DNA of 64,000 nucleotides from Acidobacteriota bacterium (lineage in GTDB: Bacteria; Acidobacteriota; CAIWXX01), in NCBI GenBank assembly GCA_040755995.1, contig JBFMAF010000034.1, positions 32,001 to 96,000 on the forward strand, read 5' to 3'. The position numbers were made by a program, and so were the translations under genes. The notes under the pieces were generated by a model that had not been told where the DNA came from, ran no database searches, and saw nothing but the letters and a program-made list of their open reading frames with translations. Shown one piece after another: positions 35,158 through 52,166 of the stretch. Within the stretch, counting starts at the first letter, position 1; each line of letters opens with the position of its first letter.

Positions 35158-36294
35158 ATGGCATCTGTTCCAGTGTTCGCTCCATCCTCGACATTCCGTG
35201 ACGAGCTGCGGCGCCGGGGAGGCGAGACGGCGCTCCGGTGCTACCAGTGTGCGACATGTTCGAGCGTCTGCGAGCTGGCCCCCGCCGAAGCTCCATTTCC
35301 GCGTCGCCAGATGCTTTGGGCGCAGTGGGGACTGGCGGACCGGATAGCGGCGGACCCGTCGGTCTGGCTTTGTCACCAGTGCAACGATTGTACTCAGCGA
35401 TGCCCGCGAGACGCGAAACCTGGTGACGTGCTTTCCGTGGTTCGCGCGCTGACCATCGAGAAGCTGGCGTTCCCGCGGTTCGTGGGGAGCCTTGTCGGGA
35501 AGGTCCGTGTGACGTGGCCGTTGGTTCTCGGCATCCCCATCCTGTTCTGGGTCCTCCTGCTCATGGCGGTGAACGGCCTGCAGGTGCCGCAGGACTTCCG
35601 GGCGTACGAGCAGTTCGTGCCGCACTGGTTGCTGTACGCGGTCTATTTTCCCGTGGTGGGCTGGGTGGTATTGGCGAGCTGGGTGAGCGGCCGCCGATTC
35701 TGGTCGCTGCTTGGACTGGGGGCCTCGCGCAACGGATCCTTCCTGGGGCATCTATGGCCGGCGCTGATGGAGGTCGGCACGCACAAGCGCTTCGGCAACT
35801 GCACCGCTGCGCGTCCGCGCAAGATCGCCCACCTTGCGCTGCTGTGGGGCTTCGTCGGCGCGGCAGTGACATCGGGGCTTCTGATCATGGCGATCTACGT
35901 CCAGGGCATGACGCTCGACAACGGGCAGATGCCGCTCTCTCTGTGGCACCCGTACAAGATCCTCGGCAACATCTCGGCGGTATTGCTCGTTGTCGGTGGG
36001 GTGCTGCTGGTGGCGAACCGGTTGCAAGACGGAGTCCGCTCCGGTGCCTCGACAGCATTCGACTCGTTCTTCCTGACTGTTGTGGGACTCGTGATCGTGA
36101 CGGGCGTACTCACCGAAGCAGGGCGATTCGGATTTACTCCGGAGCTGGCATGCGCGCTCTACGTGGTGCACCTGGGTGTGGTACTCTGCCTGTTCGTCAC
36201 GTTCCCCTATTCCAAGTTCGCGCACATGCTCTACCGTACGCTGGCAATGGTTCACGCCAGGATGGCGGGCATCGTCTCACCGCGCGCCAAGTAG
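35158..36294 (+). CDS. qmoC: QmoC (ferredoxin plus heme-b membrane domain)
   Basis: CYQCATCSSVC, CHQCNDC..CP, six TM segments, PYSKFAH. Confidence 0.93.
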   Translation: MASVPVFAPSSTFRDELRRRGGETALRCYQCATCSSVCELAPAEAPFPRRQMLWAQWGLADRIAADPSVWLCHQCNDCTQRCPRDAKPGDVLSVVRALTIEKLAFPRFVGSLVGKVRVTWPLVLGIPILFWVLLLMAVNGLQVPQDFRAYEQFVPHWLLYAVYFPVVGWVVLASWVSGRRFWSLLGLGASRNGSFLGHLWPALMEVGTHKRFGNCTAARPRKIAHLALLWGFVGAAVTSGLLIMAIYVQGMTLDNGQMPLSLWHPYKILGNISAVLLVVGGVLLVANRLQDGVRSGASTAFDSFFLTVVGLVIVTGVLTEAGRFGFTPELACALYVVHLGVVLCLFVTFPYSKFAHMLYRTLAMVHARMAGIVSPRAK

Positions 36295-36368
36295 AGCGCT
36301 GCCCAGGTGACGACGCGACAATGCAATGAATCTCGCGAGATAATCTCAACGTAAAAGGAGGAGTACTC

Positions 36369-37637
36369 ATGAGTAAACTCGTACAACCGCATGGGAGTGC
36401 GGATCTGAAGGCTCTTCTGCTTCAGGGGAAGGAAGCGGAGGAGGAGAAGAAGAAGGCTGAGACGCTCAAGAAGGTCCCCATGACCAGCCGGGAAACCTCG
36501 GACTTGATCATGATGGCCATCGGAGCTTTCACGCCGCTGCCGGGGTTCATGGGCCGGGACGATTGGAAGGGCTGCTGCGAGAACTACCAGCTGCCGTCCA
36601 TGAAGAACCTGTTCTGGCCCATCCCGATCACGCTGTCGGCCGAGCAGGCGCTTGCCGATTCGATCAAGATCGGCGAGGAAGTCGGGCTCTGGGACACGGA
36701 GACCGAGGCCTATGTCGGGACGATGAAGGTCACCGAGAAGTACGGGATCGACAAGGATTACGAGTGCAAGCAGGTGTTCCGGACCACCGACAAGGCGCAC
36801 CCGGGCGTGCAGAAGGTCATGGAGCAGGCACCCGTCAACCTGGCCGGCCCGATCCGGCCGTTCTCGGAGTCCTACTACCCCGAGATGTTCTCCACCATCT
36901 ATCAGCGGCCTGCCGAAGCGAGGAAGGCCTTCGAGGAGCGCGGGTGGAGCACCGTGGCGGCGCTGCAGCTCCGCAACCCGATGCACGGCTCGCATGCATA
37001 CCTGGCGTGGATCGCCATCGAAGTGTGCGACGGCGTCTACATTCACCAGCTCGTCGGCAAGCTGAAGCCGGGAGACATACCGGCCGAGGTGCGCGTGAAG
37101 GCAATCGATGCGCTCGTGAACAAGTACTTCCGCAAGGAGCGCGTGATCCAGGGCGGGTACCCGATGGAGATGCGCTATGCCGGACCGCGTGAGGCGCTGT
37201 TGCACGCCGTGTTCCGCCAGAACTACGGCTGCAGCCACCTGATCGTCGGCCGCGACCATGCAGGTGTCGGCGACTACTACGGCCCGTTCGATGCGCAGAA
37301 GATCTTCCTGGAGATCCCGCACGGAGCGCTCGAGCTCAAGCCGCTGCCGCTCGACTGGACCTTCTACTGCTACGAGTGCAAGGGCATGGCGTCGATGAAG
37401 ACCTGCCCGCACGAGAGCAAGGCCGTGATCGACGAGAACGGCAACTACAAGGGCGGCGCCAGGCTCCTGCTCTCCGGCACGCTGCTCCGGAAGCTGATGA
37501 GCGAAGGGAAGCCCGTGCCCGAGGAGTTCAGCAAGCCCGAGGTCATCGCGATCCTGAACGACTACTACAACAGCCTCGAGAAGAAGGTGGAGATCAAGCT
37601 GCACGGATTCGCCACCGGCGAAGCCGGCAAGAAGTAA
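36369..37637 (+). CDS. sat: Sulfate adenylyltransferase, copy 1
   Basis: [33 protein letters not shown] motifs. Confidence 0.97.
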
Positions 37638-37668
37638 TTACCCCCTTTACCCTCGCCTAACCTTCACC

Positions 37669-37700
37669 AACCGGGGCCTCCAGGCCCCGGTTTTTCTTTT
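37669..37700 (+). terminator. Rho-independent terminator after sat copy 1
   Basis: AACCGGGGCC-TCCA-GGCCCCGGTT followed by a T-tract. Confidence 0.9.
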
Positions 37701-37789
37701 CGGCGGGGCCGTCCCAACCCTCGCATGCAGCTCTTCCACCGTGGCCCAGGATGGGCTGCACTCGCCCCCTCCCGACCCCTGCGCGAAAT

Positions 37790-37818
37790 TTGACAGGCGA
37801 CGTGCGCCCTGCTACGCT
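37790..37818 (+). promoter_or_regulatory. Sigma-70 promoter at the start of the inserted segment
   Basis: TTGACA-17 nt-TACGCT. Confidence 0.55.
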
Positions 37819-37916
37819 TCGCCCATGTTTCGCTTCCTTCATGTGCATTCTCAAACGCTGCAGGCCCGGATAGGTCGGGGAGGGACCTGGCCGATGACGG
37901 CCTGGACTCCCTGTAG

Positions 37917-38183
37917 TCACGTCTTCTTGCTGCCGGTGGCCACAGCGACGTCGATGGCCGCATCGACCACTCGAAGCCCGGGCCGACGATGACCACGGCC
38001 TGCATCAACGCATCGAAGGGGCGGTTCGTTCACCACGCGGCCCCGTTCCAATGCTTCACCGACACCCTTGGCTTCCAGGCTGGCGTGATGGCCAGGGGTG
38101 TGCAGGTCGGGAACGCGGTGCCCAGACTTCTCGGCGAGGTGGTGTCGAGGGTGACGAACGCAGCCGTGACAGCAGTAGGGTGA
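37917..38183 (+). pseudogene. 3' remnant of a C5 DNA cytosine methyltransferase
   Basis: In-frame GHSDVDGRID..PGPTMTTACINASKGRFVH...QVGNAVP parallels FSDVYGRMA..APTITTGCVNPSKGRFLH...IGNAFP of the intact Dcm at 44445-45500; N-terminal motifs absent. Confidence 0.75.
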
Positions 38184-38207
38184 TCAGATCTGACGACGGG
38201 TGGTCGG

Positions 38208-39422
38208 ATGGCGCAATGTCACTTCGAGGACATACTGGCGCGCTGTGCCCGAGAAAGAGACGAAAGCGCATTCTCTGATCTGATCGCCTTCTCCAAGGAG
38301 CGTCAGCTGTCCGTGGATCAGATCAGCCGTTTGGCCACGGTTCTTGCCGACTCGGGGGACAGGTTCAGCTCTCCACATCAGTGGCAGACTGCTGATATTG
38401 CCTCGACCGGTGGGCCAACATCTCTCTCCACAATCATGTCTCCACTTCATCTGCGCTGCCTTGGCTCTCATGTGATCTCATTGGGGGTCCCTGGGCGCCC
38501 GGCTGGCGCGGTAGACGTCCTCGCCCAGATTCCCCGCTACAAGGTGCACCTCTCAAGAGGTGACGCACAGGCGGTTCTGGCAGAGTGCGGCTACGTTCAT
38601 CTTGTTGCCGACAGTACTTTTGCCCCTTTGGACGCCGCCTTGTTTAGTTTCCGGCGCCGAACAAAGGCGCCGCCGGTAGGTGCCATCGCCGTTGCGAGTC
38701 TGCTGTCGAAGAAGCTAGCAGTGGGAGTTCGCAGTGTCGGGCTGGATGTTCGCGTGGGCCATCATGGGAACTTCGGTGCCACGCTGCCGGAAGGCAGGGA
38801 GAACTCGATCACTTTTTGCCGCACGGCTCGCAACCTTGGCATCCATGCGACCTGCTTCTTGACTGATGGAACGATGGCCTACCAGCCCTATGTCGGCAGA
38901 TCCGAAGCACTTCTTGCGATAAGGGCCTTGATCGACGGCACTGCCTCACAATGGCTCCTAGAGCACAACCATCTATGTCGGCAAATGGCCTTGACGCTGC
39001 GCGGGGGTTCAGAGCCAACGAGTGCACTCTCTCTCCGAGACGCCTTTACCGCCAACCTGGAAGCACAGGGGTCCAACTACACCAACTTCCTTGCGCAGGC
39101 AGGTCGCGTGGAAGCGGCACCTCGTTTTCCGATCCGAGCGCCGTTGAACGGCTTCGTGAGGATCGATTTGGGCACCCTCAGGCTCTTGCTGGGTAAGTGG
39201 CAGTCAGGCGGGGATTGCAGTGCATCCGAGTACCCAGACGCTTGTGGCGTGACGTTGGTTCGACAATACGACGAGTTCGTGCACACGGGGGACGTGATAG
39301 CCCTGGTACGATGCCCGCATGAGGCTGCTGCACAGGCCACCGAAGACCTCGCGCGTGCATTCGGGATATCCGACGTGCCACTGCGAGCCGCTACAACCGA
39401 GATCATCGAGTCAGTCGGATGA
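38208..39422 (+). CDS. Divergent thymidine/pyrimidine-nucleoside phosphorylase-like protein (NP-II fold)
   Basis: DIASTGG, DVLAQIP, FAPLDAALFSFRR, ASLLSKK, GLDVRVG align with DeoA/Pdp motifs; C-terminal PYNP_C-like segment. Confidence 0.8.
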   Translation: MAQCHFEDILARCARERDESAFSDLIAFSKERQLSVDQISRLATVLADSGDRFSSPHQWQTADIASTGGPTSLSTIMSPLHLRCLGSHVISLGVPGRPAGAVDVLAQIPRYKVHLSRGDAQAVLAECGYVHLVADSTFAPLDAALFSFRRRTKAPPVGAIAVASLLSKKLAVGVRSVGLDVRVGHHGNFGATLPEGRENSITFCRTARNLGIHATCFLTDGTMAYQPYVGRSEALLAIRALIDGTASQWLLEHNHLCRQMALTLRGGSEPTSALSLRDAFTANLEAQGSNYTNFLAQAGRVEAAPRFPIRAPLNGFVRIDLGTLRLLLGKWQSGGDCSASEYPDACGVTLVRQYDEFVHTGDVIALVRCPHEAAAQATEDLARAFGISDVPLRAATTEIIESVG

Positions 39423-42400
39423 ACCAACCAGGAGGCACCATGCTCAGGCAAGAGTACGCATGTTTTCTTCATCCGCGCAGCAAGGGCCAGAGCCTGGACG
39501 AGAAGTGCTCCGAGTGCGGTCTTCCATTCAGCTTTCCTCTGAGTAATGCCCCCGTAGAGATTGCTGGGCGGACCATCCGCCGAGGCATAAGCCGTGGCTT
39601 CTACGGCGCTGTATACGAGGCAGAGCATCGCACCATCAGGAACCGCACGTCCGCTATCAAGGTGATACCATTCGCCATCTACGCACCGGTTGAATCGGGA
39701 GGATACGGTAAGGACTTCTCGGCAGAGCTGCAACTTCATCAAGAGCTCTCGGCGATCGACTTGGTCGCAAGGCTTCTGGACGCCGGCGAATTCGAACTCT
39801 CCTTCAACAACGTCCGCATCCCTTGCCATTGGCTGGAGATGGAGTATGTTCGCGGCCCTACATTGAGGGATCTTATCGAAGCGGGTCCAGAGAACCCCCG
39901 CATCATTGCTCAGGTGGCATCCGATCTCTTCGACCTTGTGGAGCAGCTCCAGCAGCGCGGCAAGTTCCACAACGACCTCCATTCCGAGAATGTAAAGATT
40001 GTTCCCCTTGATCGCGGCCTGTGGCGAAGCAGTGCCATTGCCAAGAATGTTCAGACGAAGGTCCTTGATCTCGGCTCGGTCGCAGACGCATCGAAGTCCG
40101 CGCCAGCCCGGTGGGGGGATATCCATCAGGTCGCCAGCCACATCCTTTCACTCACGGAGGCTTACGAGCGGGCCATTCCGTCAGTGGAGCCGGGCGATCA
40201 GAGGATCGTCTCAAGACTGAGGCAGGCGGCTCAACACTGGTGCGCTGCGGATTGTGACTCGCGGCGCGCGCGCCCACATGACCTAAAGGCGAGCATCGCA
40301 GCCGCGTGCAGCTATGGCGCAGAGTGGTGGATGGAGTCTCACCGCCTTGATGCAATTGGTGCTCACATCAACGCTGTCACCATGCCCTCCCATAGGGCTC
40401 ATGCGCTCTTTTGCGGGCCAGCGGGATGGCGCGATGTAATGCTGGAATCGGGCACCACGTTGCTCACGGGAATGCGCGGCTGCGGCAAGACGATGCTGCT
40501 CCGTTCGATCCACTGGCAGGCCAGGGTATTTCAATACGATGGAGAGACAGAAGAGGAGGTCCGAGAGAGGGTCAACACCGACCGGTTTCTCGGTCTGTTT
40601 GTTTCCTGCGCAACGTTGCTTCGAGGCCCCCGGCCGACTCACATCCCGGAACTGGTGATGCATCGCCTGTTCCTTGCCTTCGCCCTCGAGGCAGTCCACT
40701 TCATCGAGACGTGTGACTTGCGGAAGATAGGATCGTTCGACGGCCATGGGTCTGCCAGGCTCTCAGACCTTGCAGCGCGTATCGCACCCTGGTACATAGC
40801 CCCGCAGGAACCAGCCGACCTCTACGCTTTGGAGGCGTCTATTCTCAGCGCGCTCAACAACGTCCCTTCGGAAAGTGGAGGGATAGCAGAGCTCAACCCG
40901 CGGGAGGCGTTCGAGGACCTCACCGCAGTGCTCCGATCCTGGGGCGATGTCGTCGGCAGCAAGAGATTGCTGTTCTTGTTGGACGATGTGTCGGTTCGCT
41001 ACATGTCCCGCGAGAATGTTGAGACTATCCTGAAGCAACTATGCTTCCAGAGCGGCATGTTCAGCTTCAAGCTCTCGACAGAAACACAGACACTGGCCCT
41101 GCATGCCCCAGGGGAGAAGCTTGCACAGGTTGGGCGAGACTATCAAGTCTTCGACCTTGGGGAGGAGGTATTCGCGATACTTCGGGACCGCAAGCAGAGT
41201 TGCGAGTTCTTTAAAGACATCCTGATGAAGAGGGCTGTCTCAACGACGAACCTGTCAGCCGCCCAGAGAGGTATGCCGGACATCCTCTTGGGACGGCTCT
41301 CTCTCACCGACATAGCAAGAGGCATTCGCGGGGAGTTCGGGAAGGGCAAGAAAGGCGAGAAGTTCCTTTACTGGAGCCTGGATGGACTTGTTGCGCTGTG
41401 CGTCGGCGATCTCGGCGACATCATCACCCTCTATGAGAGAATGGTCCAGCATGTAGCTCCCGAGCGACCCAGCGTGGCCCCCAACGTCCAGCACAAAGAA
41501 CTGATTGACTTTGCTGAAGCGCGGCTACGCGCACTCGCGGTGAGAGATCCCTGGCTGTACTCGCATGCAGTGGCTTTTGCCCAGGCAAGCAACCGGGAGC
41601 TGTTGGGCAGCACGCCGCAGCGGCTAAGGCAATATGCAGAGGTGGACGTGACCATCGGAATTGAGGCCGCGAACGAGCTCTTCCCCTTGGTCATGAAGCT
41701 TGTTGATGAAGGCGTCTTTGTGGCAACCGGCGCAACCTCCCGCATGAAATCGCGGGACGTGCTGCAGTTCAAACTCGCATTCCGAAAGATACTCGGGCTG
41801 ACCCACAGGATTCCCTTGAGCATGAGGGACCGCTTTGAGCTCCAGAATGCACGGCTCTCCTCATGGCTGAAATCGCCGAGCAGTGCCGTTCTGGAGAGCA
41901 GCCGTGCCGCTGATGAGACGGAGCCCGATGCAGAGCAGGAGCCGGAGCCTTCGGCGGTTGAGTTGCAGGCAGCTGAGCAGCAGCTGTCGCTCGCTTTCGA
42001 CGGGGAGAGCATGACCCGAGGGGATGCCCGAAAGCCCGATGAAGCACCTTCCATCGCGAGGGTGCTCCCTACTCCCCGTCTCCTTCACGACGTGACATCA
42101 CGACGGATACCACCCTCGCGCTGGGGTGCAGCACTGGCCAACTGCACTGTGGTTGCCGCCATCGGCTTTGAGGATAGGTCGATTGGGGCCTGGAAGAACC
42201 TGCTTGTCCGCACAGTCCCTAGACGTGCGGTCTTGCTGCGCTATCCTGACCCGGGTCTCATGAATGCAGCAAACGAGAGGATCCTGACATCGATGCTGAG
42301 GGAATCGACAGTTGACACCGTGATCGTCGACACCGGCAGTCTACCGTCGGATGATCTGGCGCTTTGCGTCGCGGCAGATGTCACGGGGTTGCTGGTCATA

Positions 42401-43120
42401 GATGTTACGTCGATGACAAAGGCGATTATCTTCGACTTGGTTCGGAAGGGATTGGTTGAAAGGCATCGCTTGGCGCTCTTGCATACGTGCGCCGATCAGT
42501 ATTTCCCAAGGGAGTCGGAGTTGTCAGACATCGCGGAGCAACTGACGATCAGCCTTGACAAGGTGCGCTCACCCAAGGGCCTAAAGGAGACCTTCGACGA
42601 GCTGGACAGGAGAGTCACCGGCACAAAGGGGCCATACGAATGCAATCAGATAGGAGAGACACACGCGGACCCCAGTCAACCCGTATTTCTTGCCGCGCTC
42701 ATTTCGCTCAAGCATGAACCTATCAGAGCGATACTCGAACAGGGCGCCGTCGAGCGAAGTGCGATGATCTATCCTGTCCACTCTGCGGGTAGGAGGGCGC
42801 GCCGTTCGGTGGTGGCGGAGCAACTGGCTCATTTCCTGGGCCAGATGTACCACGGAGATGCGATTCCCGCGAAATCTCTGGATCACGTAGCAGTGTATCG
42901 CGAACTGAAGGCGCTCCATCAAAGGTGGAGTCTCAGCTCGTCATACAATTTCGAGGTGGCATTGGCGGGGACCAAGATGCACACGGTTGGGGCGGCGATG
43001 TTCGCTGCGACAGCAGTGCCGTCGTCAGTGTACTATGCCAAGACGAAGGGGTTCGATGTCTCTGCATTCACGCAGGGCACGGGAGAGACACAGGCGCATG
43101 TACTGGAGCGGACGGAATGA
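39419..43120 (+). CDS. Multidomain protein: Zn-ribbon, Ser/Thr kinase, P-loop ATPase, C-terminal Rossmann-like region
   Basis: CFLH...CSECG; RGFYGAVY, AIKV, HNDLHSEN, DLG kinase motifs; Walker A GMRGCGKT, Walker B LFLLDD; ATGA overlap with upstream gene. Confidence 0.8.
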   Translation: MNQPGGTMLRQEYACFLHPRSKGQSLDEKCSECGLPFSFPLSNAPVEIAGRTIRRGISRGFYGAVYEAEHRTIRNRTSAIKVIPFAIYAPVESGGYGKDFSAELQLHQELSAIDLVARLLDAGEFELSFNNVRIPCHWLEMEYVRGPTLRDLIEAGPENPRIIAQVASDLFDLVEQLQQRGKFHNDLHSENVKIVPLDRGLWRSSAIAKNVQTKVLDLGSVADASKSAPARWGDIHQVASHILSLTEAYERAIPSVEPGDQRIVSRLRQAAQHWCAADCDSRRARPHDLKASIAAACSYGAEWWMESHRLDAIGAHINAVTMPSHRAHALFCGPAGWRDVMLESGTTLLTGMRGCGKTMLLRSIHWQARVFQYDGETEEEVRERVNTDRFLGLFVSCATLLRGPRPTHIPELVMHRLFLAFALEAVHFIETCDLRKIGSFDGHGSARLSDLAARIAPWYIAPQEPADLYALEASILSALNNVPSESGGIAELNPREAFEDLTAVLRSWGDVVGSKRLLFLLDDVSVRYMSRENVETILKQLCFQSGMFSFKLSTETQTLALHAPGEKLAQVGRDYQVFDLGEEVFAILRDRKQSCEFFKDILMKRAVSTTNLSAAQRGMPDILLGRLSLTDIARGIRGEFGKGKKGEKFLYWSLDGLVALCVGDLGDIITLYERMVQHVAPERPSVAPNVQHKELIDFAEARLRALAVRDPWLYSHAVAFAQASNRELLGSTPQRLRQYAEVDVTIGIEAANELFPLVMKLVDEGVFVATGATSRMKSRDVLQFKLAFRKILGLTHRIPLSMRDRFELQNARLSSWLKSPSSAVLESSRAADETEPDAEQEPEPSAVELQAAEQQLSLAFDGESMTRGDARKPDEAPSIARVLPTPRLLHDVTSRRIPPSRWGAALANCTVVAAIGFEDRSIGAWKNLLVRTVPRRAVLLRYPDPGLMNAANERILTSMLRESTVDTVIVDTGSLPSDDLALCVAADVTGLLVIDVTSMTKAIIFDLVRKGLVERHRLALLHTCADQYFPRESELSDIAEQLTISLDKVRSPKGLKETFDELDRRVTGTKGPYECNQIGETHADPSQPVFLAALISLKHEPIRAILEQGAVERSAMIYPVHSAGRRARRSVVAEQLAHFLGQMYHGDAIPAKSLDHVAVYRELKALHQRWSLSSSYNFEVALAGTKMHTVGAAMFAATAVPSSVYYAKTKGFDVSAFTQGTGETQAHVLERTE

Positions 43121-43147
43121 TGCGGCGGGCAAGTCTGAGGGGTAGTC

Positions 43148-43564
43148 ATGCCTGATGTCTTCGATAGGCAGAAGCGATCCGAGATTATGCGCAAGATCGG
43201 GCCCAAGGACTCGGCACCGGAGATGCGCGTCCGCTCGATCGTTCACCGCCTGGGCTACCGGTTCCGACTCCATGGTCGTGATCTCCCAGGCACCCCCGAC
43301 ATCGTGCTGCCCGGGCACCGCAAGGTCATCTTCATGCACTCCTGCTTCTTCCACGGCCATAGGGACTGCCCGAGGGCGACAATTCCGGCGACGCGCTCGG
43401 GGTTCTGGGAGGTCAAGATCGAGGGCAACGCCAGGCGTGACCGCGCGAGCCGCCGTAGGCTTAGGCGCCTCGCATGGGAGTGCCTGGTCATCTGGCAGTG
43501 CGAGATACGAAAAGGTACCGAAGAGCGGCTTCGGGCGAAGATCCGCAGGTTCCTGGAGGGGTGA
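43148..43564 (+). CDS. vsr: Very short patch repair endonuclease
   Basis: DVF..RS.IM, PE..VR, LPGTPDIV, HSCFFHGH, FW..KI..N..RD, IWQCE. Confidence 0.92.
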   Translation: MPDVFDRQKRSEIMRKIGPKDSAPEMRVRSIVHRLGYRFRLHGRDLPGTPDIVLPGHRKVIFMHSCFFHGHRDCPRATIPATRSGFWEVKIEGNARRDRASRRRLRRLAWECLVIWQCEIRKGTEERLRAKIRRFLEG

Positions 43565-43750
43565 AGGATGGGGAAGGGCATCTTCACGCCGGGCGCAACC
43601 GCCGCATGACGACATCCCATAGATCCGCTACCGCTTGACCGCAACGAACCCAACAAGTCCCGAGAGGAGGAGCGGCGACCGGATGTCCCGCTTCGCGGAT
43701 GCGGGGGGTGAGTCCATCTTTCGCGACATGCTCGCCGATCGCAGAGTCCG

Positions 43751-43805
43751 TGTGGCATACGGCTCAGACAAATTGACCCACTTTGCTCAGATAAACTGAC
43801 CCACC
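43751..43805. mobile_element. Orphan IS21-family-like terminus
   Basis: TG start followed by tandem 20-bp repeats GCTCAGAYAAAYTGACCCAC (43762, 43785), like IS21-family subterminal repeats. Confidence 0.55.
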
Positions 43806-43917
43806 TAACGGACGGCCTTTTTTGTTTCCAAGCAGCAACATCTGGGTCGAGTCTGGTGAGTGGTATATGTGTGGACGAATCCGGGTGGTCCGCATGCAGG
43901 GTGGGCGGAGGGGGACG

Positions 43918-44380
43918 GCGCACTTAGCGGATTGTTGACCGGGGATCTCGGAAGCAGATGACCGGGGGTTTGGGGAAACGTGACTGCGGGCGGTCACTTG
44001 GGGGCGAGACGGCGGTCAACAGTTGCGCAAACGCGTTGGGGGCCGCGTGGGACAGGGCGGTCATGCTCCCAGCTTTGAAGGAGGGAAAGGAATGAAGGCA
44101 TGGCAAGAAAGCGGCCATCCATCCGCCATGCACGAGACATTCTGCCACTGAGGCGCGAAGTCCCGGCTGGGTGTTCGAGAGACCGCCCGCAGCCAGCGCG
44201 AGGGTCGCGGCAAGCTCGTCAAGTACCTGCGCTGGCGCAGGCAGCGGAGGGTAGGGTGGTCGCTGCCGGAGGTGATCGCCCACGCCCAGCTGCAGCAGTT
44301 GCTCTCTTCCGCCCAGAAGCCTCCGCCGGTGGCCCCCGCCCGGGGGAGAGACTGGACGCTATTCAGGAAAAGCAACCCCG
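43918..44380 (+). pseudogene. Degenerate IS21-family left end plus frameshifted istA N-terminus
   Basis: Multiple TGACCGGGG/CGGTCA repeats, then RBS and MARKRPSIRHARDIL / LGVRETARS...KYLR...GWSLPE...QLQQLL, resembling the IstA N-terminal HTH. Confidence 0.6.
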
Positions 44381-44444
44381 CGTTGTGGAGCATAGAGCGG
44401 GGGCCACGCTCCGGACCACCATCGATTCAGCAGAGGAGCCCTGG

Positions 44445-45500
44445 TCACGCATCGCGAAAGGCACTGCTCTCCTTCAAGAAGCGCGCCACCGCCGCAGCAT
44501 GCCATTTAGCGAGCTCGGGAGGGAAGGCGTTGCCGATGAGCGCAGCCGCCGGGAACTTGCCCCGGCACAATTGGAAACGATAGCCGCGGCTGAACGATTG
44601 AAGGAGTGCGGCCTCACGCAAGGTCACGCATCGGTCCTCCTGCGGGTGTAGAAACCGCCCTTTGGAGGGATTCACACAACCAGTCGTGATGGTCGGCGCA
44701 ACAGCGTCCCATGCCATACGCCCGTATACATCCGAAAACCCGCGGCATCGTTTGTGACACGGTAAACGAGCCTCCCGGCCGAGATCACTCATGCTTCCGC
44801 CGTCCTTCGGGATGCTGCCAATCAGCCTCCTGGTACGGCTGGTTCTGTTCTCCGGTAGGTCGTGGACCTCATCTCCGCTGTCGCCTGGTCGAGGCAAACA
44901 GCCGATTGCGTCACGTACGGTGCGACGGACAGTCAAGGGATCCGGGTATGGGATCCTTGCGGCGCGTGCTGCGAGGAGGATGACTCTTTCGCGCCGTTGT
45001 GGCACTCCGTAGGCGGCCGCGTCGACTTCGCGATAGTCGGCGGCATATCCCAACTGCTCCAGGTCACGATGAAACCGATGGAATTCGGTCCGTCGCAGCA
45101 GCCCGGGCACATTCTCGAACATCACTGCCTTGGGCAGCATGCCAACTACGAACCGGAGGAAGTCACGTATGAGTCGATTCCTTGGATCGGGAATCGTCCG
45201 AGAGCCGTTCAGCGTCCGAAGGCGCGAGAACCCCTGACAGGGCGGACACCCAGCCAACAGATCCAGGTCTCCCTCCTGCAGGCCTAATTCATCCATGACT
45301 TCCTCGGTTGACAGTGCGCGGATGTCCGTGCGCCAGATCCTGACCTCGGGATGATTGAGGGCGTAGGTATCGGCGGCGAGACGGTCGATTTCGATCGCGG
45401 CCAGGACCCTGAAACCCGCCGCCTTTAGTCCCGCCGTCAATCCACCGCAGCCGGAAAAGAGATCGATCGCGGAATAGCGGGCTTCTTCAACGACCACCAT
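44445..45500 (-). CDS. dcm: C5 DNA cytosine methyltransferase
   Basis: DLFSGCGG, GCPPCQGFS, FENVPG, GVPQRRER, IGNAFPP. Confidence 0.95.
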   Translation of the reverse strand: MVVVEEARYSAIDLFSGCGGLTAGLKAAGFRVLAAIEIDRLAADTYALNHPEVRIWRTDIRALSTEEVMDELGLQEGDLDLLAGCPPCQGFSRLRTLNGSRTIPDPRNRLIRDFLRFVVGMLPKAVMFENVPGLLRRTEFHRFHRDLEQLGYAADYREVDAAAYGVPQRRERVILLAARAARIPYPDPLTVRRTVRDAIGCLPRPGDSGDEVHDLPENRTSRTRRLIGSIPKDGGSMSDLGREARLPCHKRCRGFSDVYGRMAWDAVAPTITTGCVNPSKGRFLHPQEDRCVTLREAALLQSFSRGYRFQLCRGKFPAAALIGNAFPPELAKWHAAAVARFLKESSAFRDA

Positions 45501-45524
45501 TGTCCCTCGGAATCCACTCTCTGG

Positions 45525-47195
45525 CTACGAGGATCGAGCGCTTTCTGCCAGCTCGCTGATCATCGCCTCGCTACGAGCTGTAGCAGCTGCCTCCTGACTG
45601 TGCGACCAACGCTCCGCCGCCTCAAGGAAGTTCTCGTCGCCTATGGCCGCGATCTCCAACTCTTTGTCGTGCTCCACCTGGATGATGAGCGGGAATCGGA
45701 CGGCTTGGCCGCTGATGATCCCCTGGCCCGGTCCGAATCCCGGGAGTAGACGGCTGTCGTCCTTGCTCAAATTCTCCATGACCTTCTCGACGAAACTCTG
45801 GTCACGCGGGTTCACCAAACGAAAAATCATGAACGTGTTGCACTGAGAAAGGGCCGTCTCGTCCAGGCGGCTTGGACGTTGGCTGACCAGCAGTAGGCCT
45901 GTGCCGAATTTGCGTCCCTCCGTGATCACCTTCCTGATGATCTCGAGCGAGGGGGTGTCCGCCTGCCCTTCGCTGTGCGATGGAATGAAGTTGTGGGCCT
46001 CTTCCACGACTGCCAGGAAGGGAGGGATCGCGTTCGACATGGAGGCGCGATGTTCGAATAGTTGTTTCAGCACGATCGACACTATGGTTGACTGCGTGAG
46101 GTGGTCGTAGCCGCCCAGGTACAGCACGCTCGCTTGGTTCGGCCGCACGAACCCGGCGGGATTCGTTAGGGGATCGGGCATGGGTTCAAAGGGAAACTGT
46201 TGGAGTGACGCCTGCTGCCGCAGTCTCTCATTGGATTTCCCCATTTGCTGTATGTAGCCACGCACAATTCGCAGTCCGCGTTTCACCGCGGGAACCGTAC
46301 CGGGGTGGCTCCCTTTCGGCAATTCATCGAGTTTCTGAACCAATAGTTGAAGGAAATCGTCAAGCCCGACTTCGGAACGGAGTTCCACCTTCTCGAGCGC
46401 CTCGTCGTATCTGTCCCTTTGTGCGTCTGAAAACCCCTGGGTCATTTGTGACACCAGGTATCCCACGAGATCGCGGTTTTCGGACTTCACACGAAGGTTC
46501 GGGTAATAGAGACGCACAGTTCGACTGGGGAATAAGTCTCGCCTCGTGTAGAGGCCTAGGTAGTCGCCATGGGGATCCAGAATCAGGAGGGGATATCCCA
46601 GCGTCAACAACTCCCGAATGATTCTCCGCGCTGCTACCGTCTTCCCTCCGCCCGTCATCGCAAGGATCGCCATGTGACGAGCCACGATCGGACTCGTCTT
46701 GATCCTCACTTCGACATTAGAACGGCCGATCAACGTGCCCAATTTCAGGCGTGGAGCATCTTCGTCGCCCGTCAGGATGGTCTTCACCGACTCGGCTGGA
46801 GGCAACAGCACCTCGCCTCCCGGACTGACAGGATAGTTGAGTGGGCGCATACGCTTGAAGTCACCCATAGGCGTCGCCCCGAGAACCAGCACTTTTCCCT
46901 CGACCTGGTCCCGCGACAGCGAGAGCACGGTGTCGCGGAGTTCGAGTCGCTCCTCGGCGAGCTCTTGGCCTGCCTCTGCCGGGAGAAAGGGGTTGAATCG
47001 GCCGAGTTCTACGATCCTCCCCCAAACCGCCACTCTTTCTTTCGTCAACGCCTCGCGATCGGACCCGGCAGGGCTGGGAACGTCCATCTCAGTGTACACG
47101 AGGTCCCCGAGTTTCGCCGCGTAGTTGCGCATGAAGAAACGGTACTCCTGAGGTGTCGTGTTGCCCACAACGGTGCCCACATGAATGCCAACCAT
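45525..47195 (-). CDS. herA: HerA-family ATPase/translocase
   Basis: N-terminal HAS-barrel-like region, HMAILAMTGGGKT, ILDPHGDY, VEEAHNF, EGRKFG, SQRPS. Confidence 0.9.
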   Translation of the reverse strand: MVGIHVGTVVGNTTPQEYRFFMRNYAAKLGDLVYTEMDVPSPAGSDREALTKERVAVWGRIVELGRFNPFLPAEAGQELAEERLELRDTVLSLSRDQVEGKVLVLGATPMGDFKRMRPLNYPVSPGGEVLLPPAESVKTILTGDEDAPRLKLGTLIGRSNVEVRIKTSPIVARHMAILAMTGGGKTVAARRIIRELLTLGYPLLILDPHGDYLGLYTRRDLFPSRTVRLYYPNLRVKSENRDLVGYLVSQMTQGFSDAQRDRYDEALEKVELRSEVGLDDFLQLLVQKLDELPKGSHPGTVPAVKRGLRIVRGYIQQMGKSNERLRQQASLQQFPFEPMPDPLTNPAGFVRPNQASVLYLGGYDHLTQSTIVSIVLKQLFEHRASMSNAIPPFLAVVEEAHNFIPSHSEGQADTPSLEIIRKVITEGRKFGTGLLLVSQRPSRLDETALSQCNTFMIFRLVNPRDQSFVEKVMENLSKDDSRLLPGFGPGQGIISGQAVRFPLIIQVEHDKELEIAAIGDENFLEAAERWSHSQEAAATARSEAMISELAESARSS

Positions 47196-47214
47196 AAGAC
47201 GTCCCTCCTCAATG

Positions 47215-49011
47215 CTACTGAGCCTTGGGTCTGAAGAAGAAGTCGCGCGGGCCCCTCGCCAGTAACAGTCTGACCTGGCTGACCAGGCGCGGGTCCCCTG
47301 TGTTCATCGCTCGACGCAGCATCCCCGCTGACAGGCTCGCGGATACGCCGCGCGACAGCCAATCCGGTACCTTGGCGTACTTGTCGACGATGTCAAGTCC
47401 GACGGGGAACGCATAGCGCGGCAGCAACCTGGCGGTGTGGTAGAGGAATCGCGCAATGAAACCTGAGACCTCGGCGGCGGCTCGATTCATCTCCACCCTA
47501 AACGGGAAGTTACTTTCCTCACTCTTGACGAGCATCGCCGACGGGCGGGGATACTGCGCCACCACGGGCTTCCAGCGATCACGGGCCCGCACCTCCAAGT
47601 TCTTGTCGACTTCTATGGGAGTGAGGTACTCGCCCTCCTTGAGAATGCAACCGAAAAGGAAATCGTCCGTGATGTCATACTGCTCGATTTTCTCGATCGC
47701 TGCCTCCTTATACGCTGCGGTAAAGACACGCTCCCGCTCCAAGCGGTCCATGACCGCCGTGGTGACCGCCCTGCCGACGGGGCGCTCCACGACTCCCACG
47801 ACGGGGATGGTGCATTCGTCGATCAGCTGCATCAAGTAGGCGTAAATCGCCATGAACTGATTCCACATGGACGGTTCGCCTGGAATGTGCTGGACCTTGT
47901 TCGAAACCTTCCCTTCGTCGATTCCGATCTTGTTGAGGAATCCCGGCGCCAGGAACGGCACGTAATTCGGTGGGCCTTCGTCATACTGCTGGAAGGCGTT
48001 CACGAGGGGCCCGTGGATCAGAAGGGCCCGCGTCTCCGGATGCTCTCTCAGATGCAGCAGAGCCGTGAGAGCCTCCAGGGTGTACCGCGCCGCCTCCTGC
48101 AGACGCTTCGGGTCGGCGCGTTCAGGAAGGCGTCGACCTCCGTCCAGGAGGTCTCCGATGACGTAGGGGTGCATGGACCACTGCTCCCGGTGCTCTGGTT
48201 CTTCCACCCCGGGGCGAACCGAATATACGCCGACTCGCAACGCCAGCGGTTCGATGCCCGGGAGCGAAGCAATACGAGCCACGCCCCCGTCAACGAATGC
48301 GAACCGCTCTCCCTCCACCTCAGACCACATATCTAGATGGGACTTGCGTATCTGTCCGATCCGGATCTTGGAGCCGGCGGTCTCCAAGGAGGCGCGCAAT
48401 TGCTCGGCGAGTTTCTTGACGACTATCGGAAAGTGGATGTTTTCCTCCGTCCTCATCGAGAACAGGTGCGAAAAGAGCGCGGTCAGGATGTGCGGTGCGT
48501 CCAGGAAGCGCGCGGCGTGCAATGCGAACAGGTCGGGATCCTTTGCACTCGCCTCACGGTATAGGGCCTCGACAATATGCGGCGCTTCAACAACGGTCGC
48601 CTTCGTAGGTGGGATGTCGTATGATTGGAACCGCAATGCGGGTTCGATCGATTCGAGTCTGGACAGAAACTCGGGTTCCCACACGTCCACCACGCATCGC
48701 GCCTCGCTCTCGCTGCCTTCAATGAAGAAGGCGACGATCTTTCCGTGCAAGTCCGCAAGCTGCAAGTGCCTGCAGAGCCCCTCACACTTGACGTAGAAAG
48801 CCTCCTTGAACACCTGTATCCTGGCAGAGCCCTCTGCGACAATAGTCCCGGGTGTATGGTCCTTGAACTTGATCAAGAGGCAGCAGCCGTCACGCAGATG
48901 GCCCGCGGCAGGTCCAACCGGACAGAGGGCGTGTTCGGCGATCCGTCTGGCGTTCTGTTCGCCGCCGAGCAACCAGCCACCGTCGACGAGGATGAACAAG
49001 TTCCGATGCAC
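47215..49011 (-). CDS. nurA: NurA-family nuclease with roughly 200 aa N-terminal extension
   Basis: FAFVDGG, HGPL, FPVGLDIVDKYAKV; directly upstream of herA. Confidence 0.75.
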   Translation of the reverse strand: MHRNLFILVDGGWLLGGEQNARRIAEHALCPVGPAAGHLRDGCCLLIKFKDHTPGTIVAEGSARIQVFKEAFYVKCEGLCRHLQLADLHGKIVAFFIEGSESEARCVVDVWEPEFLSRLESIEPALRFQSYDIPPTKATVVEAPHIVEALYREASAKDPDLFALHAARFLDAPHILTALFSHLFSMRTEENIHFPIVVKKLAEQLRASLETAGSKIRIGQIRKSHLDMWSEVEGERFAFVDGGVARIASLPGIEPLALRVGVYSVRPGVEEPEHREQWSMHPYVIGDLLDGGRRLPERADPKRLQEAARYTLEALTALLHLREHPETRALLIHGPLVNAFQQYDEGPPNYVPFLAPGFLNKIGIDEGKVSNKVQHIPGEPSMWNQFMAIYAYLMQLIDECTIPVVGVVERPVGRAVTTAVMDRLERERVFTAAYKEAAIEKIEQYDITDDFLFGCILKEGEYLTPIEVDKNLEVRARDRWKPVVAQYPRPSAMLVKSEESNFPFRVEMNRAAAEVSGFIARFLYHTARLLPRYAFPVGLDIVDKYAKVPDWLSRGVSASLSAGMLRRAMNTGDPRLVSQVRLLLARGPRDFFFRPKAQ

Positions 49012-49389
49012 GATGTCCTCCCTTCAGCGAGTCTCCTGACGGCCTCCTGACAAAGTATGCCTGAGGCGCATTGATGTCAAGCGGCATCGGAAAGCATCCC
49101 TGCAATTCAGACGCTGGGGAGAGGATTCGGCGATCCAGCGGGCGCGGCAGCTACGGCAGGGGCACTTACCTACGTTGGAAGGCGGGGGACCGGGGGGGGC
49201 CGGCGGTGCTGCGGTGTGAATCGAGATGTGGCATCACTGGAGAAGGCGGGAATGCCCACGCAGATCACGCCATCTGGTCTGAAGAAGCCAAGTGGAATCC
49301 GTTGAGACTCACGCGAGCAAGGGTGAGACCGGTCCGGAGCTTCTAGTAGAGCCAGAGGGGGAGCGGTGGAGGTGTCAGTGCCCTCGACG

Positions 49390-51048
49390 TTAAGGTGCTC
49401 TTGGGTTGGCCAGGAGGCTGTAGATTTCGCGCTTGAGGGACTGGACCTTCTTGAGGAGTTTTCTCCGGGGTTCGCCATCCGGGAGAAGCAGGAGTATCTC
49501 AGCGAACTCCGGGAGTGAGATCAAGCAGAACTTGTGTTGGTAGTAGAGCGCGACGACGTCGATTGCGGGTCCAAGGCGGCGGAGGAATTGGACCCTCGTT
49601 CCGCGGGTGAGTTCCCTTCGCTGGCGGAGGAGGTGGACTTGGAGCAGCGTGTAGGTGAGCAGGACGAAGAGGACGTGAGCGAGAACCAGGGAGAATGCGC
49701 GGGACGTGACCCTCATGAGATCCCAGAAGCACTTGTACTGGCGGTGCCGTTCCTCGATGGTGGGGCGGAGCTCATAGGTGGAGCGGATCTGTGCGGCGCT
49801 CCAGTCTCGCGCCGTGGTGACGATCACCCACTCTTCAACCTGTCCATGAACATCGATTTCGCGGCTGATGACAGCGGTCAGTGGCACGGGGCAGCTACTC
49901 CAGCTTGAGAGATCACGAACGATTCCGATGAGGGTGAGTGCTGGGACCATGGGCGGGGGCGGAGGGAGTCCTTTTCGCGCGGCCAGGGTCTGTTGTCTCT
50001 TTGCCTCGCGCTTGATGATTGTCGGATGTTTGGGCCGATCCGTTTGATCTCGCCGTGTTGCCACAGGACGTAGGAAGATCTCCCACGCGAAGTCCTTCAT
50101 CGCGGCCAACGCCTGAACATCTATGAAGGCGTCCATGTTTTTCCTAAGAGGCATCACCGTATCGATCTGGTGAATCTGCTTGAGCCGCCCGATCGCCTCC
50201 CCGTCGATGAATCCACGATCCAGAATGAGCACACGCATCCAGCCGCGGCCAACTGCCTTCACAAACTCCTCGACCATTTCATAGAGAATCGCAGACTCGT
50301 GCTCGTTACCAGGAACGAGTCGCGCAGCGACCACAAAGAAGAAATCCATATTTCGATTGATATGGATCAGGTTGACCAGCTTGTAGCATCGCCTCCACTG
50401 GTAGCGCGTGTCTTTCAAGTCGACTTCTTCGTCGTTGACCGGATGGTTATGTTCGTCGAATAGCAGCCTGACCGACCCCTCGTACCATTCATTGTCCGGG
50501 ACGAACACATAGGAGGCGTCCCCGATGTAGACCCCCTCGGCATCCAGGAGCTTGCTCCCGCGTAGCGCCCGGGGCACCTCTCGATTGAACCAGGCATGGA
50601 GCAGGCCAGAATCCGTATCACGGCCTAACTTGCGGAGGAAGTCCTGATCGCAGGGCGTCTGCCGGCCATTCGTGTTCTTGTCATTGAACCCCGTGCAGGC
50701 GAGCGACACGTCCCCTGAATCCGGATGAACCACCTTTCGTCCCACTTCCGGCCCCAGCGCGCTGATCAAGCCTCCTGAGCGGATGACGTAGGGAAAGGCC
50801 CGGTAGCTACCCGTCCCATGCAACCGCAGGCTCATCTGACTCGCGATGTAGACCCAAACCGGGACCTCCTCCTTCTTGCGCGGGGTCGGGTAGGTCTCCA
50901 CCAGTCGATCCATTATCGGGCGCGCAAGAATGTGCCGGAAGAAATCGGCCTCGGCCGCCTCCGTCACCGGTTCAAGATAGTCCAGATTCCCCGCGCGGAG
51001 CGCGTCTAAAACAAACTCCCGATCATGCTCGAACGTAATAAGGTTCAT
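49390..51048 (-). CDS. DDE transposase (IS4-superfamily-like)
   Basis: IGDAS, LILDRGF, YELRPTIEERHRQYK (Y-R--IE signature). Confidence 0.85.
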   Translation of the reverse strand: MNLITFEHDREFVLDALRAGNLDYLEPVTEAAEADFFRHILARPIMDRLVETYPTPRKKEEVPVWVYIASQMSLRLHGTGSYRAFPYVIRSGGLISALGPEVGRKVVHPDSGDVSLACTGFNDKNTNGRQTPCDQDFLRKLGRDTDSGLLHAWFNREVPRALRGSKLLDAEGVYIGDASYVFVPDNEWYEGSVRLLFDEHNHPVNDEEVDLKDTRYQWRRCYKLVNLIHINRNMDFFFVVAARLVPGNEHESAILYEMVEEFVKAVGRGWMRVLILDRGFIDGEAIGRLKQIHQIDTVMPLRKNMDAFIDVQALAAMKDFAWEIFLRPVATRRDQTDRPKHPTIIKREAKRQQTLAARKGLPPPPPMVPALTLIGIVRDLSSWSSCPVPLTAVISREIDVHGQVEEWVIVTTARDWSAAQIRSTYELRPTIEERHRQYKCFWDLMRVTSRAFSLVLAHVLFVLLTYTLLQVHLLRQRRELTRGTRVQFLRRLGPAIDVVALYYQHKFCLISLPEFAEILLLLPDGEPRRKLLKKVQSLKREIYSLLANPRAP

Positions 51049-51467: not shown

Positions 51468-51859
51468 TCTGGACCTCAGCCTTTATTCGCATTCTAGTAA
51501 TAACATAAAGATTCAACCAAGGCAACAAGAAAAATGTGAGTTCCGACGAATAACCCTCCCTAACTCGGCCGACTAGCCGCCAGGGAGCCTACCCCTCGGA
51601 AAACCGGCCCATCGCCGCATGTGGCCGCTGGGCGGCCCGCCCTCCGAGGTTCACGGCAGGATCGTGGAGCCGGCGACAGGAGCCCGGGTGACGCCACACC
51701 CTACTGTCTGAATCGCAGGGAAAGCATCCGAGAAAGGGAGAATGGACGGCCAATGCCGTCCAGCTGCCGAGCCTTCCTTGTTCCCATGTGTAATCCCTAG
51801 TTGGCGCCGCCCCTGGGGAACCTGGTACCGATCGATGATGTGCCAGCCTTCCTGTGGCG

Positions 51860-52098: not shown

Positions 52099-52166
52099 AG
52101 CGCTGCTGAGGATGGGACAATCCAACAAGTCTCGCGAGATAATTTCAACGAAAGGGAGGAGTACTC

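Follow-up and report, generated by a model that had tools for sequence, protein, structure and literature searches.

A widely dispersed candidate defence module with a CARF, kinase and AAA+ fusion protein at its core, found beside cytosine-5 methylases

Introduction

CARF domains are the receivers of the cyclic oligoadenylates made by type III CRISPR systems. Other prokaryotic defences rest on phosphorylation or methylation: BREX type 2 (Pgl) combines a methylase, a Ser/Thr kinase and an ATPase without a nuclease, and PD-T4-6 and Stk2 are themselves kinases. Nucleotides are the target of RADAR, in which the partner of RdrA is a nucleoside deaminase, and likewise of Cad1, Detocs and the systems that deplete deoxynucleoside triphosphates. 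Cytosine-5 (C5) methylases mark host DNA; the T:G mismatches that result when 5-methylcytosine (5mC) is deaminated are repaired by Vsr. This work concerns an operon in a 64,000-nucleotide stretch of DNA (the window) from an Acidobacteriota bacterium (GCA_040755995.1, contig JBFMAF010000034.1, positions 32,001-96,000 of the forward strand), which encodes a thymidine phosphorylase (TP)-like protein, TPL; a kinase, AAA+ and CARF protein of 1233 amino acids (aa), KAC; and Vsr. An intact C5 methylase, Dcm2, lies close by, and homologous loci are denoted by L-numbers.

The architecture of KAC was described in 2014 as that of a "small family" with a Zn ribbon, a kinase, an AAA+ domain with an arginine in its P-loop, a CARF domain and a wHTH (winged helix-turn-helix) domain (PMC4012209). 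That article mentions neither "thymidine" nor "Vsr". No publication on the operon was found in the literature searched, a search outside which the 2020 CARF census and its supplements lie, and the accessible portions of PMC12839542, bioRxiv 10.1101/2025.09.30.679545 and PMC11090510 contain nothing on it. An original prediction, made from the sequence alone, had presented the locus as a candidate undescribed defence system consisting of Dcm, a TP-like protein, a kinase/ATPase fusion and Vsr, in which pyrimidine nucleosides might be sensed or depleted.

Results

A compact operon encodes TPL, KAC and Vsr

Three closely packed open reading frames (ORFs) on the + strand encode TPL, KAC and Vsr. The tight coupling noted at first was confirmed in the sequence, where the TPL stop and the KAC start overlap as ATGA, 27 bp separate KAC from Vsr, and 24 bp lie between TPL and an open frame upstream (37917-38183). 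The latter had been called a Dcm, and proved to be only the C-terminal remnant of one, the intact gene lying downstream on the other strand.

37938-38183, + strand: C5 methylase remnant, the C-terminal 80-90 residues; the open frame begins at 37917, after a stop at 37914-37916
38208-39422, + strand: TPL, 404 aa, distantly homologous to thymidine/pyrimidine-nucleoside phosphorylases, its phosphate site rebuilt
39419-43120, + strand: KAC, 1233 aa, with a zinc (Zn) knuckle, a Hanks Ser/Thr kinase, an ORC/Cdc6-like AAA+ domain and a tandem CARF
43148-43564, + strand: Vsr very-short-patch repair endonuclease, 138 aa (Pfam Vsr E 1.5e-24; PADLOC Vsr E 3.9e-30), as originally named
44445-45500, - strand: Dcm2, intact C5 cytosine methylase, 351 aa (Pfam DNA_methylase E 1.2e-50, profile positions 2-318 of 324)

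The upstream frame was rejected as a working methylase, since it aligns only to residues 313-403 of the 476-aa Dcm of locus L023 (tblastn E 4e-22), with no upstream pieces found. PADLOC MTase_II models match it by their C-terminal ends only, and it has no Pfam match.

KAC belongs to the CARF_STK_AAA family

Almost the whole of KAC (residues 11-1230) matches positions 2-1185 of the 1187 in the PADLOC model PDLC01925, "CARF6--CARF_STK_AAA", at E 4.5e-210, contrary to the expectation that PADLOC would return nothing. KAC is a member of this family, sharing with it the profile, Zn ribbon, kinase, AAA+ domain with a P-loop arginine, and CARF that define it. Hence the claim of an undescribed system stands in part: no curated NCBIfam family claims TPL or KAC, but a PADLOC model exists, and the KAC architecture is set out in the text available from PMC4012209. 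The kinase/ATPase fusion was likewise recognised correctly, but the sensor that follows it, a C-terminal tandem CARF, had been missed. The parts of KAC are arranged as follows.

39461-39517, + strand: Zn knuckle (C15, H18, C30, C33)
39566-40318, + strand: Hanks-type Ser/Thr kinase domain, approximately residues 50-300
40367-41914, + strand: ORC/Cdc6-clade AAA+ domain with a C-terminal helical/winged-helix-like part, approximately residues 317-832
41915-42070, + strand: acidic linker, residues 833-884, without conservation and with a predicted local distance difference test score (pLDDT) below 50 (residues 524-575 of the model)
42071-43117, + strand: tandem CARF, residues 885-1233

Residue conservation was read from an alignment of the window protein and 50 full-length homologues (n=51). 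In the Zn knuckle, C15 and C33 are kept in 51/51 and C30 in 50/51, and the family consensus is CxxC...CxxC where the window copy has CxxH...CxxC. All 51 sequences retain the kinase residues K81, E103, H184-N185-D186, N191 and D217; searched against the PDB, the profile of this domain retrieves bacterial Hanks kinases (4eqm, E 3.1e-10), and the domain matches PADLOC PD-T4-6 at E 2.7e-11. A further match of the kinase part to the MADS system is weak (mad6 E 5.3e-5; NCBIfam antiphage_MADS6 13.8 bits against a cut-off of 460).

The AAA+ domain, matched by Pfam ORC-CDC6-like at residues 317-581, is equally well preserved: R353, which is an arginine inside the P-loop GMRGCGKT, K357 and T358 are each kept in 51/51, as is the Walker B pair D522-D523. 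An AlphaFold2 model of residues 310-884 (pLDDT 81.6) is most similar to 2qen (Z 13.8, root-mean-square deviation (rmsd) 4.9 over 319 aligned residues), 2fna (Z 13.4) and DNA-bound Orc1/Cdc6 (2qby_B, Z 13.1), followed by TnsC, MuB, RdrA (Z 10.7) and BrxC (Z 9.6), and Foldseek also matches ORC, RdrA and BrxC.

The last 349 residues were modelled as two CARF domains in one chain (pLDDT 89.6, predicted template modelling score 0.91). This model aligns with Can1 (6sce_A) at Z 15.2 and rmsd 3.6 over 236 residues spanning both CARFs, and with Can2, Cam1, Csa3, Csm6, Cad1 and Card1 at Z 10-12. Throughout the 51 sequences, the motif residues G916-F917-E918, D995, K1001, G1184 and K1186 of this region are invariant. 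A complex prediction with the KAC kinase part, the KAC tandem CARF and TPL scored 0.02, which is no answer and constitutes evidence neither way.

TPL is a phosphorylase homologue with an altered active site

The homology of TPL to thymidine phosphorylases, as first proposed, is real. The single sequence finds PDB 2dsj at E 6.5e-16, and positions 17-394 of 403 in the family profile align to residues 35-424 of 433 in the pyrimidine-nucleoside phosphorylase 1brw at E 1.9e-37, an alignment that spans the alpha, alpha/beta and C-terminal domains of the TP fold. The protein nonetheless scores below the cut-offs of the enzyme families (NF004490, 84.3 bits against 269; TIGR02644, 66.6 against 409), and it has neither a Pfam match at gathering score nor a PADLOC match. 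The family consists of proteins of approximately 400 aa, with 768 at E<=1e-3 among the candidates tested; the best 120 relatives are 38-52% identical to TPL, besides the window's own truncated entry (100%). No other TP-family gene occurs in the window's genome.

The pattern of change and conservation in the active site is specific. Across 20 TPL members the motifs STGGP-SLST, GRPAG and SLLSKK and the residue R149 are invariant. R149, S164 and K168, all invariant, align with the R, S and K of LRDVTAT and SIMSKK in the solved enzymes, positions that we take to be the pyrimidine-base-binding Arg, Ser and Lys of TP enzymes. The STGG loop is also kept. By contrast with the 1brw and 2dsj sequences to which they were aligned, the family members have lost the Lys-His before STGG (DKHSTGG to D(V/I)ASTGG), and in place of the GHTGGT loop, with its Lys/Ser and Thr, they have the invariant GRPAG loop (KMSGRGLGHTGGT to PKLGVPGRPAGG); the residues changed at both sites are presumably those that bind phosphate. 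As identical changes run through the family, they point to selection rather than decay. Most likely, to judge from these alignments, TPL still binds a thymine- or uracil-type nucleoside moiety, yet differs from an ordinary phosphorylase. Though homologous to the TP enzymes, it falls outside the enzyme family in its profile scores, its predicted phosphate site and its gene context.

The public protein set holds TPL as a 233-aa C-terminal piece starting from an internal GTG. As homologues align to the full 404-aa frame from its residue 6 onward, this entry is a gene-caller truncation.

TPL depends on KAC, and KAC does not depend on TPL

Conservation of the pair, which the original prediction had proposed as a check, was found from both sides. 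A scan for TPL with one genome per species gave 64 loci, of which 62 were evaluable, the contigs of L004 and L019 stopping directly after TPL. These loci are spread patchily over approximately 15 phyla, by a tally of record titles, and one archaeon. KAC adjoins TPL in 60/62, directly downstream and co-directional in 57 and convergent in three; the only loci that lack it, L061 and L062, contain the most distant TPL relatives (29% and 34% identity). The reverse sample comprised metagenome contigs carrying the best 80 of 196 KAC relatives, of which 60 were evaluable, as they include the KAC start with 1.4 kb or more upstream of it. TPL is directly upstream in 50/60, downstream on the other strand in one, and missing from nine.

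KAC itself stays intact in the loci without TPL. Tight Dcm-KAC-Vsr operons occur at L088 (577-5839), L097 and L118, and in L140 a Dcm lies directly upstream of KAC, with no Vsr detected. The L088 protein is the closest relative of the window KAC among the best 80 of 196 (61% identity). A tenth TP-less example is on a Loktanella salsilacus plasmid (NZ_CP072995.1, 430567-452154, L087), where the KAC homologue is annotated "hypothetical protein", with a metallophosphoesterase ahead of it and, behind it, a DNA cytosine methyltransferase and a NaeI-family restriction endonuclease. Over 40 key residues each, these ten KAC proteins match the window in 437 of 440 cells; the exceptions are D574E, G1068S and G1184D, the last of them in the CARF motif of L097. 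As KAC is found intact without TPL, and TPL, its two most distant relatives aside, not without KAC, it is TPL that depends on KAC, and not the reverse.

The KAC family is small: among 1.84 billion representative proteins it counts 604 at E<=1e-3, 411 at 1e-10 and 190 at 1e-30, and all full-length matches are approximately 1200-1270 aa long. Its Loktanella member was the one match in the plasmid search; the phage collection gave no KAC match, and KAC was present in 0/30 relatives of the window's genome. Decaying copies were also observed, with KAC in pieces at L055 (9186-11498) and L063 (9070-11690), and truncated at L041 (9193-10998).

Cytosine-5 methylases are the constant partner

Taking three ORFs on either side of the pair gave 327, which fall into 224 clusters, among which only C5 methylases (51) and Vsr (20) recur widely. 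With tblastn added, Dcm is present in 52/64 and Vsr in 31/64 of the TPL-centred loci. The 12 loci without a detected Dcm comprise the KAC-less L061 and L062, five with short flanks, L040, which has full flanks and a Vsr, and four with a distant C5 methylase, at 6.3, 6.7, 10.9 and 13.0 kb from the pair. That these methylases share a contig with the pair was checked by sequence overlap for L064 (6.3 kb) and L008 (6.7 kb), and by matching contig coordinates for L010 and L059. Of the 24 KAC-centred loci with 5 kb or more on each side, 18 have a Dcm. The original prediction had paired a DeoA-fold protein with the kinase-ATPase; TPL is dispensable, however, and the constant partner is a C5 methylase.

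These methylases are diverse, forming nine clusters at 45% identity that match different PADLOC methylase models and lie upstream, downstream or on the other strand. The cluster most often beside the module, cluster A, has 30 members and includes Dcm2, which in tblastn matches the Dcm directly upstream of TPL elsewhere at E 1e-100 and beyond; other clusters are confined to clades assigned by record titles to Bacteroidota, Actinomycetota or Sphingomonas. A UvrD/PD-(D/E)XK gene is between Dcm and Vsr in five loci. The methylase is also shared with, or found beside, other methylase-based systems, namely Mza genes, HerA/NurA (the window and L004) and the NaeI-family endonuclease of Loktanella. We infer that the module may need C5 methylation as such, rather than any one methylase or target sequence. 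So generic a tie suggests either a cue derived from methylated DNA, or a module that backs up restriction systems based on 5mC.

In loci assigned to Bacteroidota by record titles, Mza genes were seen beside the pair, downstream of KAC in L011, L016, L018, L027 and L042, and upstream in L059. The order there is Vsr-Dcm-TPL-KAC-MzaB-(...)-MzaC, which places the pair between the methylase and the Mza candidate system.

The module lies in defence and mobile islands

With Dcm, Vsr and KAC fragments left out, and at a threshold of E<=1e-10, PADLOC models match 59/238 flanking ORFs (32/121 and 27/117). They include BrxL, PglZ, PglX, DrmA/C/D, MzaB/C/D and type I, II, IIG and IV restriction enzymes, as well as GajB-like helicases, LmuA, PtuA, Lit, SoFic, and HEC and PDC candidates. 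The same ORF caller applied to 20 random regions of the window's genome gave 14/116, with matches to generic kinase, histidine-kinase and sigma-54-activator models. The defence-island enrichment suggested for the homologues is therefore found, if only roughly (odds ratio 2.4, Fisher p 0.005). Pfam matches among 52 neighbours add transposases, Tn7-like genes, a relaxase, HipA and WYL. No salvage (deo) gene recurs among the 327 neighbouring ORFs, or occurs among the 52 scanned with Pfam; thus the homologues are in defence and mobile islands rather than the deo operons that would have spoken for a salvage role. Models for type III cas genes match 0/238 flanking ORFs at E<=1e-10.

GGDEF proteins, or proteins sharing an N-terminal domain with one, adjoin KAC in 6/144 loci, where they are possible makers of a nucleotide signal. 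As a conserved signal maker the GGDEF cyclase was rejected, being limited to these six loci.

GGDEF-type neighbours: L003, 7707-8984; L161, 5600-6871; L090, 3189-4376; L140, 573-1865; L023, 6240-7901; L053, 6220-7881

The island is enclosed by a direct repeat

The original placement of the operon in a segment bounded by sat repeats, beside NurA-HerA-Dcm and insertion sequence debris, was upheld. A 1650-bp direct repeat, 94.2% identical between its copies by blastn, encloses an island of approximately 14 kb (37705-51859), and the two sat translations are identical at 415/423 positions. The remaining features of the island and its boundaries are:

36055-37704, + strand: left copy of the direct repeat and island boundary, comprising the end of a Qmo/Hdr-like gene, sat (36369-37637) and a terminator (37669-37692), as identified by blastn, Pfam ATP-sulfurylase and a terminator-like hairpin
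45525-47195, - strand: HerA (Pfam DUF87/HerA E 5.5e-25; PADLOC HerA E 7.2e-48)
47215-49011, - strand: NurA-like gene (Pfam NurA E 2.3e-4)
49390-51048, - strand: IS4-type DDE transposase within the island (Pfam DDE_Tnp_1 E 1.6e-13)
51860-53502, + strand: right copy of the direct repeat, with the second sat at 52167-53435 (Pfam ATP-sulfurylase E 2.5e-79)

Third-position GC (GC3) is 0.64-0.76 in the island genes and 0.75-0.88 in the surrounding sulfur-metabolism genes. Recombination with an incoming sat copy may have brought the island in, and could remove it by the same route. NurA-like, HerA and Dcm2 form a co-directional trio; NurA-HerA is a neighbouring module, and the intact Dcm2 could serve both it and the operon. 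In L004 (1-2555) the order HerA-Dcm-TPL is found on one strand, beside which the window layout looks rearranged.

An Rfam scan of 37000-52500 gave nothing at gathering score, and a scan for sigma-70-type promoters found no convincing one 5' of TPL, where the sat terminator alone stands out. The 880-bp spacer between Vsr and Dcm2 has no tblastx match in the first 64 loci. No restriction endonuclease family matches the island in Pfam or PADLOC scans, although such enzymes often escape sequence recognition, and the eight island proteins scanned with PADLOC include no PglZ or PglX.

Beyond the second sat are a PIN-domain ORF and a MarR/nucleotidyltransferase ORF (54106-54549 and 57051-57755), which are toxin-antitoxin-like, followed by several low-GC3 ORFs without Pfam matches, such that the variable region may reach further. 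A 662-aa ORF at 22057-24045, also without a Pfam match, has a GC3 of 0.58 amid high-GC3 core genes.

Discussion

The explanation tentatively favoured for this locus is a horizontally acquired anti-phage module, the core of which would be KAC, a CARF-gated kinase acting with C5 methylation, with TPL as a dependent accessory; it is the best candidate of those weighed here, and still falls short of being probable. It is backed by the domains and the intactness of their catalytic and motif residues, by the linkage of the genes and by their genomic context. In such a module, the C5 methylase would mark host DNA, and Vsr would mend the T:G mismatches left by deamination of 5mC. Judging from its fold, the tandem CARF of KAC may bind a small ligand of nucleotide type, which would appear or increase when infection sets in. 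Binding might then switch the AAA+ domain, through ATP binding and oligomerisation, perhaps on DNA. By analogy with PD-T4-6 and Stk2, this switch would turn on the Hanks kinase, and the phosphorylation of host or phage proteins would stop the infection or the cell. TPL would act on the pyrimidine-nucleoside part of the ligand or its precursor, either making the ligand or, more probably, clearing it, much as ring nucleases set a threshold for CARF effectors. Since KAC is intact without TPL, and TPL is never alone, a modulating role for TPL is favoured over that of sole effector or sole signal source. TPL as the only maker of the CARF ligand was rejected, as the ten TP-less KAC proteins keep the CARF motif residues, with the one G-to-D change in L097.

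Several points weigh against this reading. The mechanism is one that we infer, and phage protection is predicted from genes alone. No cyclase is conserved nearby as a source of the ligand, the GGDEF neighbours being limited to the few loci listed. The link to methylation has gaps: no Dcm was detected in 6/24 KAC-centred loci flanked by 5 kb or more on each side, and the window's own upstream Dcm is reduced to a remnant, with the intact gene perhaps part of the NurA-HerA module. The TPL- and KAC-centred samples partly overlap (L006 and L102, for example, seem to be one contig), and short contigs are frequent among those from metagenomes. The enrichment of defence genes is rough because its control was a single genome of another taxon, in which the matches were to generic domains.

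A further reading, itself doubtful, is that the module acts as an alarm for the host chromosome. The methylase would label that chromosome, and phage degradation of host DNA would free 5-methylpyrimidine nucleotides for the CARF to read and TPL to process or threshold, whereupon the kinase would fire. As free 5-methylpyrimidine nucleotides would arise only from the breakdown of methylated DNA, the epigenetic mark would in effect create a damage-associated signal, which would explain both why any C5 methylase suffices and why a nuclease is unneeded. The TP fold is taken here to be the cell's binder of 5-methylpyrimidine nucleosides.

The combination of a methylase, a Ser/Thr kinase and an ATPase without a nuclease also parallels Pgl/BREX type 2, and an exclusion system of that kind, unlikely on balance, is a rival. 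Methylation would then be read on the DNA, with the C5 methylase (by way of its conserved catalytic core), the AAA+ domain with its winged-helix-like part, or both, engaging unmethylated incoming DNA, the kinase signalling, and CARF and TPL tuning the response. The resemblance of the AAA+ model to DNA-bound Orc1/Cdc6, TnsC, MuB and BrxC would fit, as would the tight TPL-free Dcm-KAC-Vsr operons (L088, L097 and L118) and the Dcm-KAC arrangement of L140, and KAC stands where M-V-R style operons have their R gene. However, the Dcm genes belong to nine unrelated clusters and vary in position, lying on either strand and as far as 13 kb off, which speaks against a fixed partnership between proteins; the island has neither PglZ nor an N6 methylase; and the conserved CARF and TPL would be left unexplained. 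Alternatively, TPL might be the effector, with KAC sensing infection and activating TPL, by binding or phosphorylation, to destroy pyrimidine (deoxy)nucleosides or nucleotides and so starve phage replication, as nucleotide-targeting defences do. The dependence of TPL on KAC (60/62 loci), their translational coupling through ATGA, the retention of the base-binding residues, and the likeness of the AAA+ domain to RdrA are all consistent with this. Yet KAC must have an output of its own in the 9/60 loci without TPL, and most of the canonical phosphate-site residues have been replaced, making classical phosphorolysis doubtful; such a role for TPL is accordingly judged rather improbable.

That the closest folds to the KAC sensor are the cyclic oligoadenylate-binding CARFs of Can1, Can2, Csm6, Cam1 and Cad1, and that the PADLOC model stems from a CARF census, raises a further explanation, in which KAC is a type III CRISPR accessory answering cyclic oligoadenylates from a Cas10 whose gene is at another place in the genome. 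Contig C11 of the window's genome has a 645-aa ORF (109357-110835, - strand) that is weakly Cas10-like (Cmr2, 56 bits against 79.4; Csm1, 32.8 against 170), and it may be a divergent type III cyclase. However, that match is below the cut-offs and on another contig, type III cas models match none of the 238 flanking ORFs, and the conserved neighbours are instead Dcm and Vsr, such that this is the least credible of the explanations, and very unlikely. Slightly less remote, though still quite unlikely, is a role outside defence, whether in maintenance or addiction, in regulating mobile methylase islands (for instance, countering methylase toxicity), or in the turnover of 5-methylpyrimidines. The module has no nuclease and its protective effect is a prediction; it travels with transposases, Tn7-like genes and a relaxase; the TP family itself consists of salvage enzymes; and some KAC copies (L055, L063 and L041) are decaying. 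Against such a role, the CARF, the PD-T4-6-like kinase, the RdrA/BrxC-like AAA+ domain and the neighbours are typical of defence islands, and neither deo nor other salvage genes recur around the pair.

The favoured anti-phage reading would, if correct, have consequences beyond this locus. The locus couples a tandem CARF with a kinase and an ORC/Cdc6-like ATPase outside a CRISPR context, and links it to C5 methylation and a remodelled nucleoside phosphorylase. A defensive function would imply a CARF pathway with a new source of ligand, a kinase output for nucleotide-sensing defence, and a role for the Dcm/Vsr pairs without a restriction enzyme that have long been a puzzle. The family is rare yet widely spread, and exists in a compact four-gene form, Dcm-TPL-KAC-Vsr.

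Comparison with known systems begins with the protein itself. As far as the available text of PMC4012209 describes that family, KAC fits it in the Zn ribbon, the kinase, the AAA+ domain with its P-loop arginine and the CARF; the C-terminal part of KAC, however, is modelled as two CARFs and not as a CARF with a wHTH, and the description, in keeping with its "small family", treats the protein alone. With Can1 of type III CRISPR systems, KAC shares the two CARFs in one chain and the logic of fusing sensor to effector. Yet the effectors of Can1, Can2, Csm6, Cam1, Cad1 and Card1 are a nuclease, pore or deaminase, whereas that of KAC is a kinase with an AAA+ domain, and there are no cas genes nearby. 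TPL, for its part, has in common with DeoA/Pdp (glycosyltransferase family 3) all three domains, the base-binding Arg, Ser and Lys, and the STGG loop, but differs in its rebuilt phosphate site, its location outside a deo operon and its linkage to KAC.

At the level of whole systems, BREX type 2/Pgl (PglW kinase, PglX methylase, PglY ATPase and PglZ) shares the methylase, Ser/Thr kinase and ATPase, as well as the want of a recognisable nuclease. This module instead has a C5 rather than an N6 methylase, together with Vsr; it lacks PglZ, and its kinase and ATPase are fused to a CARF. The likeness to MADS is slight, mad6 matching weakly, and mad8 matching HerA at E 1e-20, a protein for which the HerA models give much better scores. 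Since the marker genes of BREX, Pgl and MADS are absent, the module is none of these systems. With RADAR (RdrA/RdrB), Cad1 and Detocs it shares the pairing of a large AAA+ ATPase, here of RdrA-like fold, with a protein of nucleoside-metabolism type, but the enzyme here is TP-like rather than a deaminase or a purine nucleoside phosphorylase, a kinase and a CARF are present, and TPL is missing from 9/60 loci. Type II restriction-modification cassettes of the Dcm-Vsr type share the C5 methylase and Vsr, with KAC sitting where their R gene would be, but neither TPL nor KAC has an endonuclease domain. Hence, on the genes it encodes, the module is a real and widely dispersed candidate defence system, in which a known protein family at the core is joined to a system-level make-up that is new.

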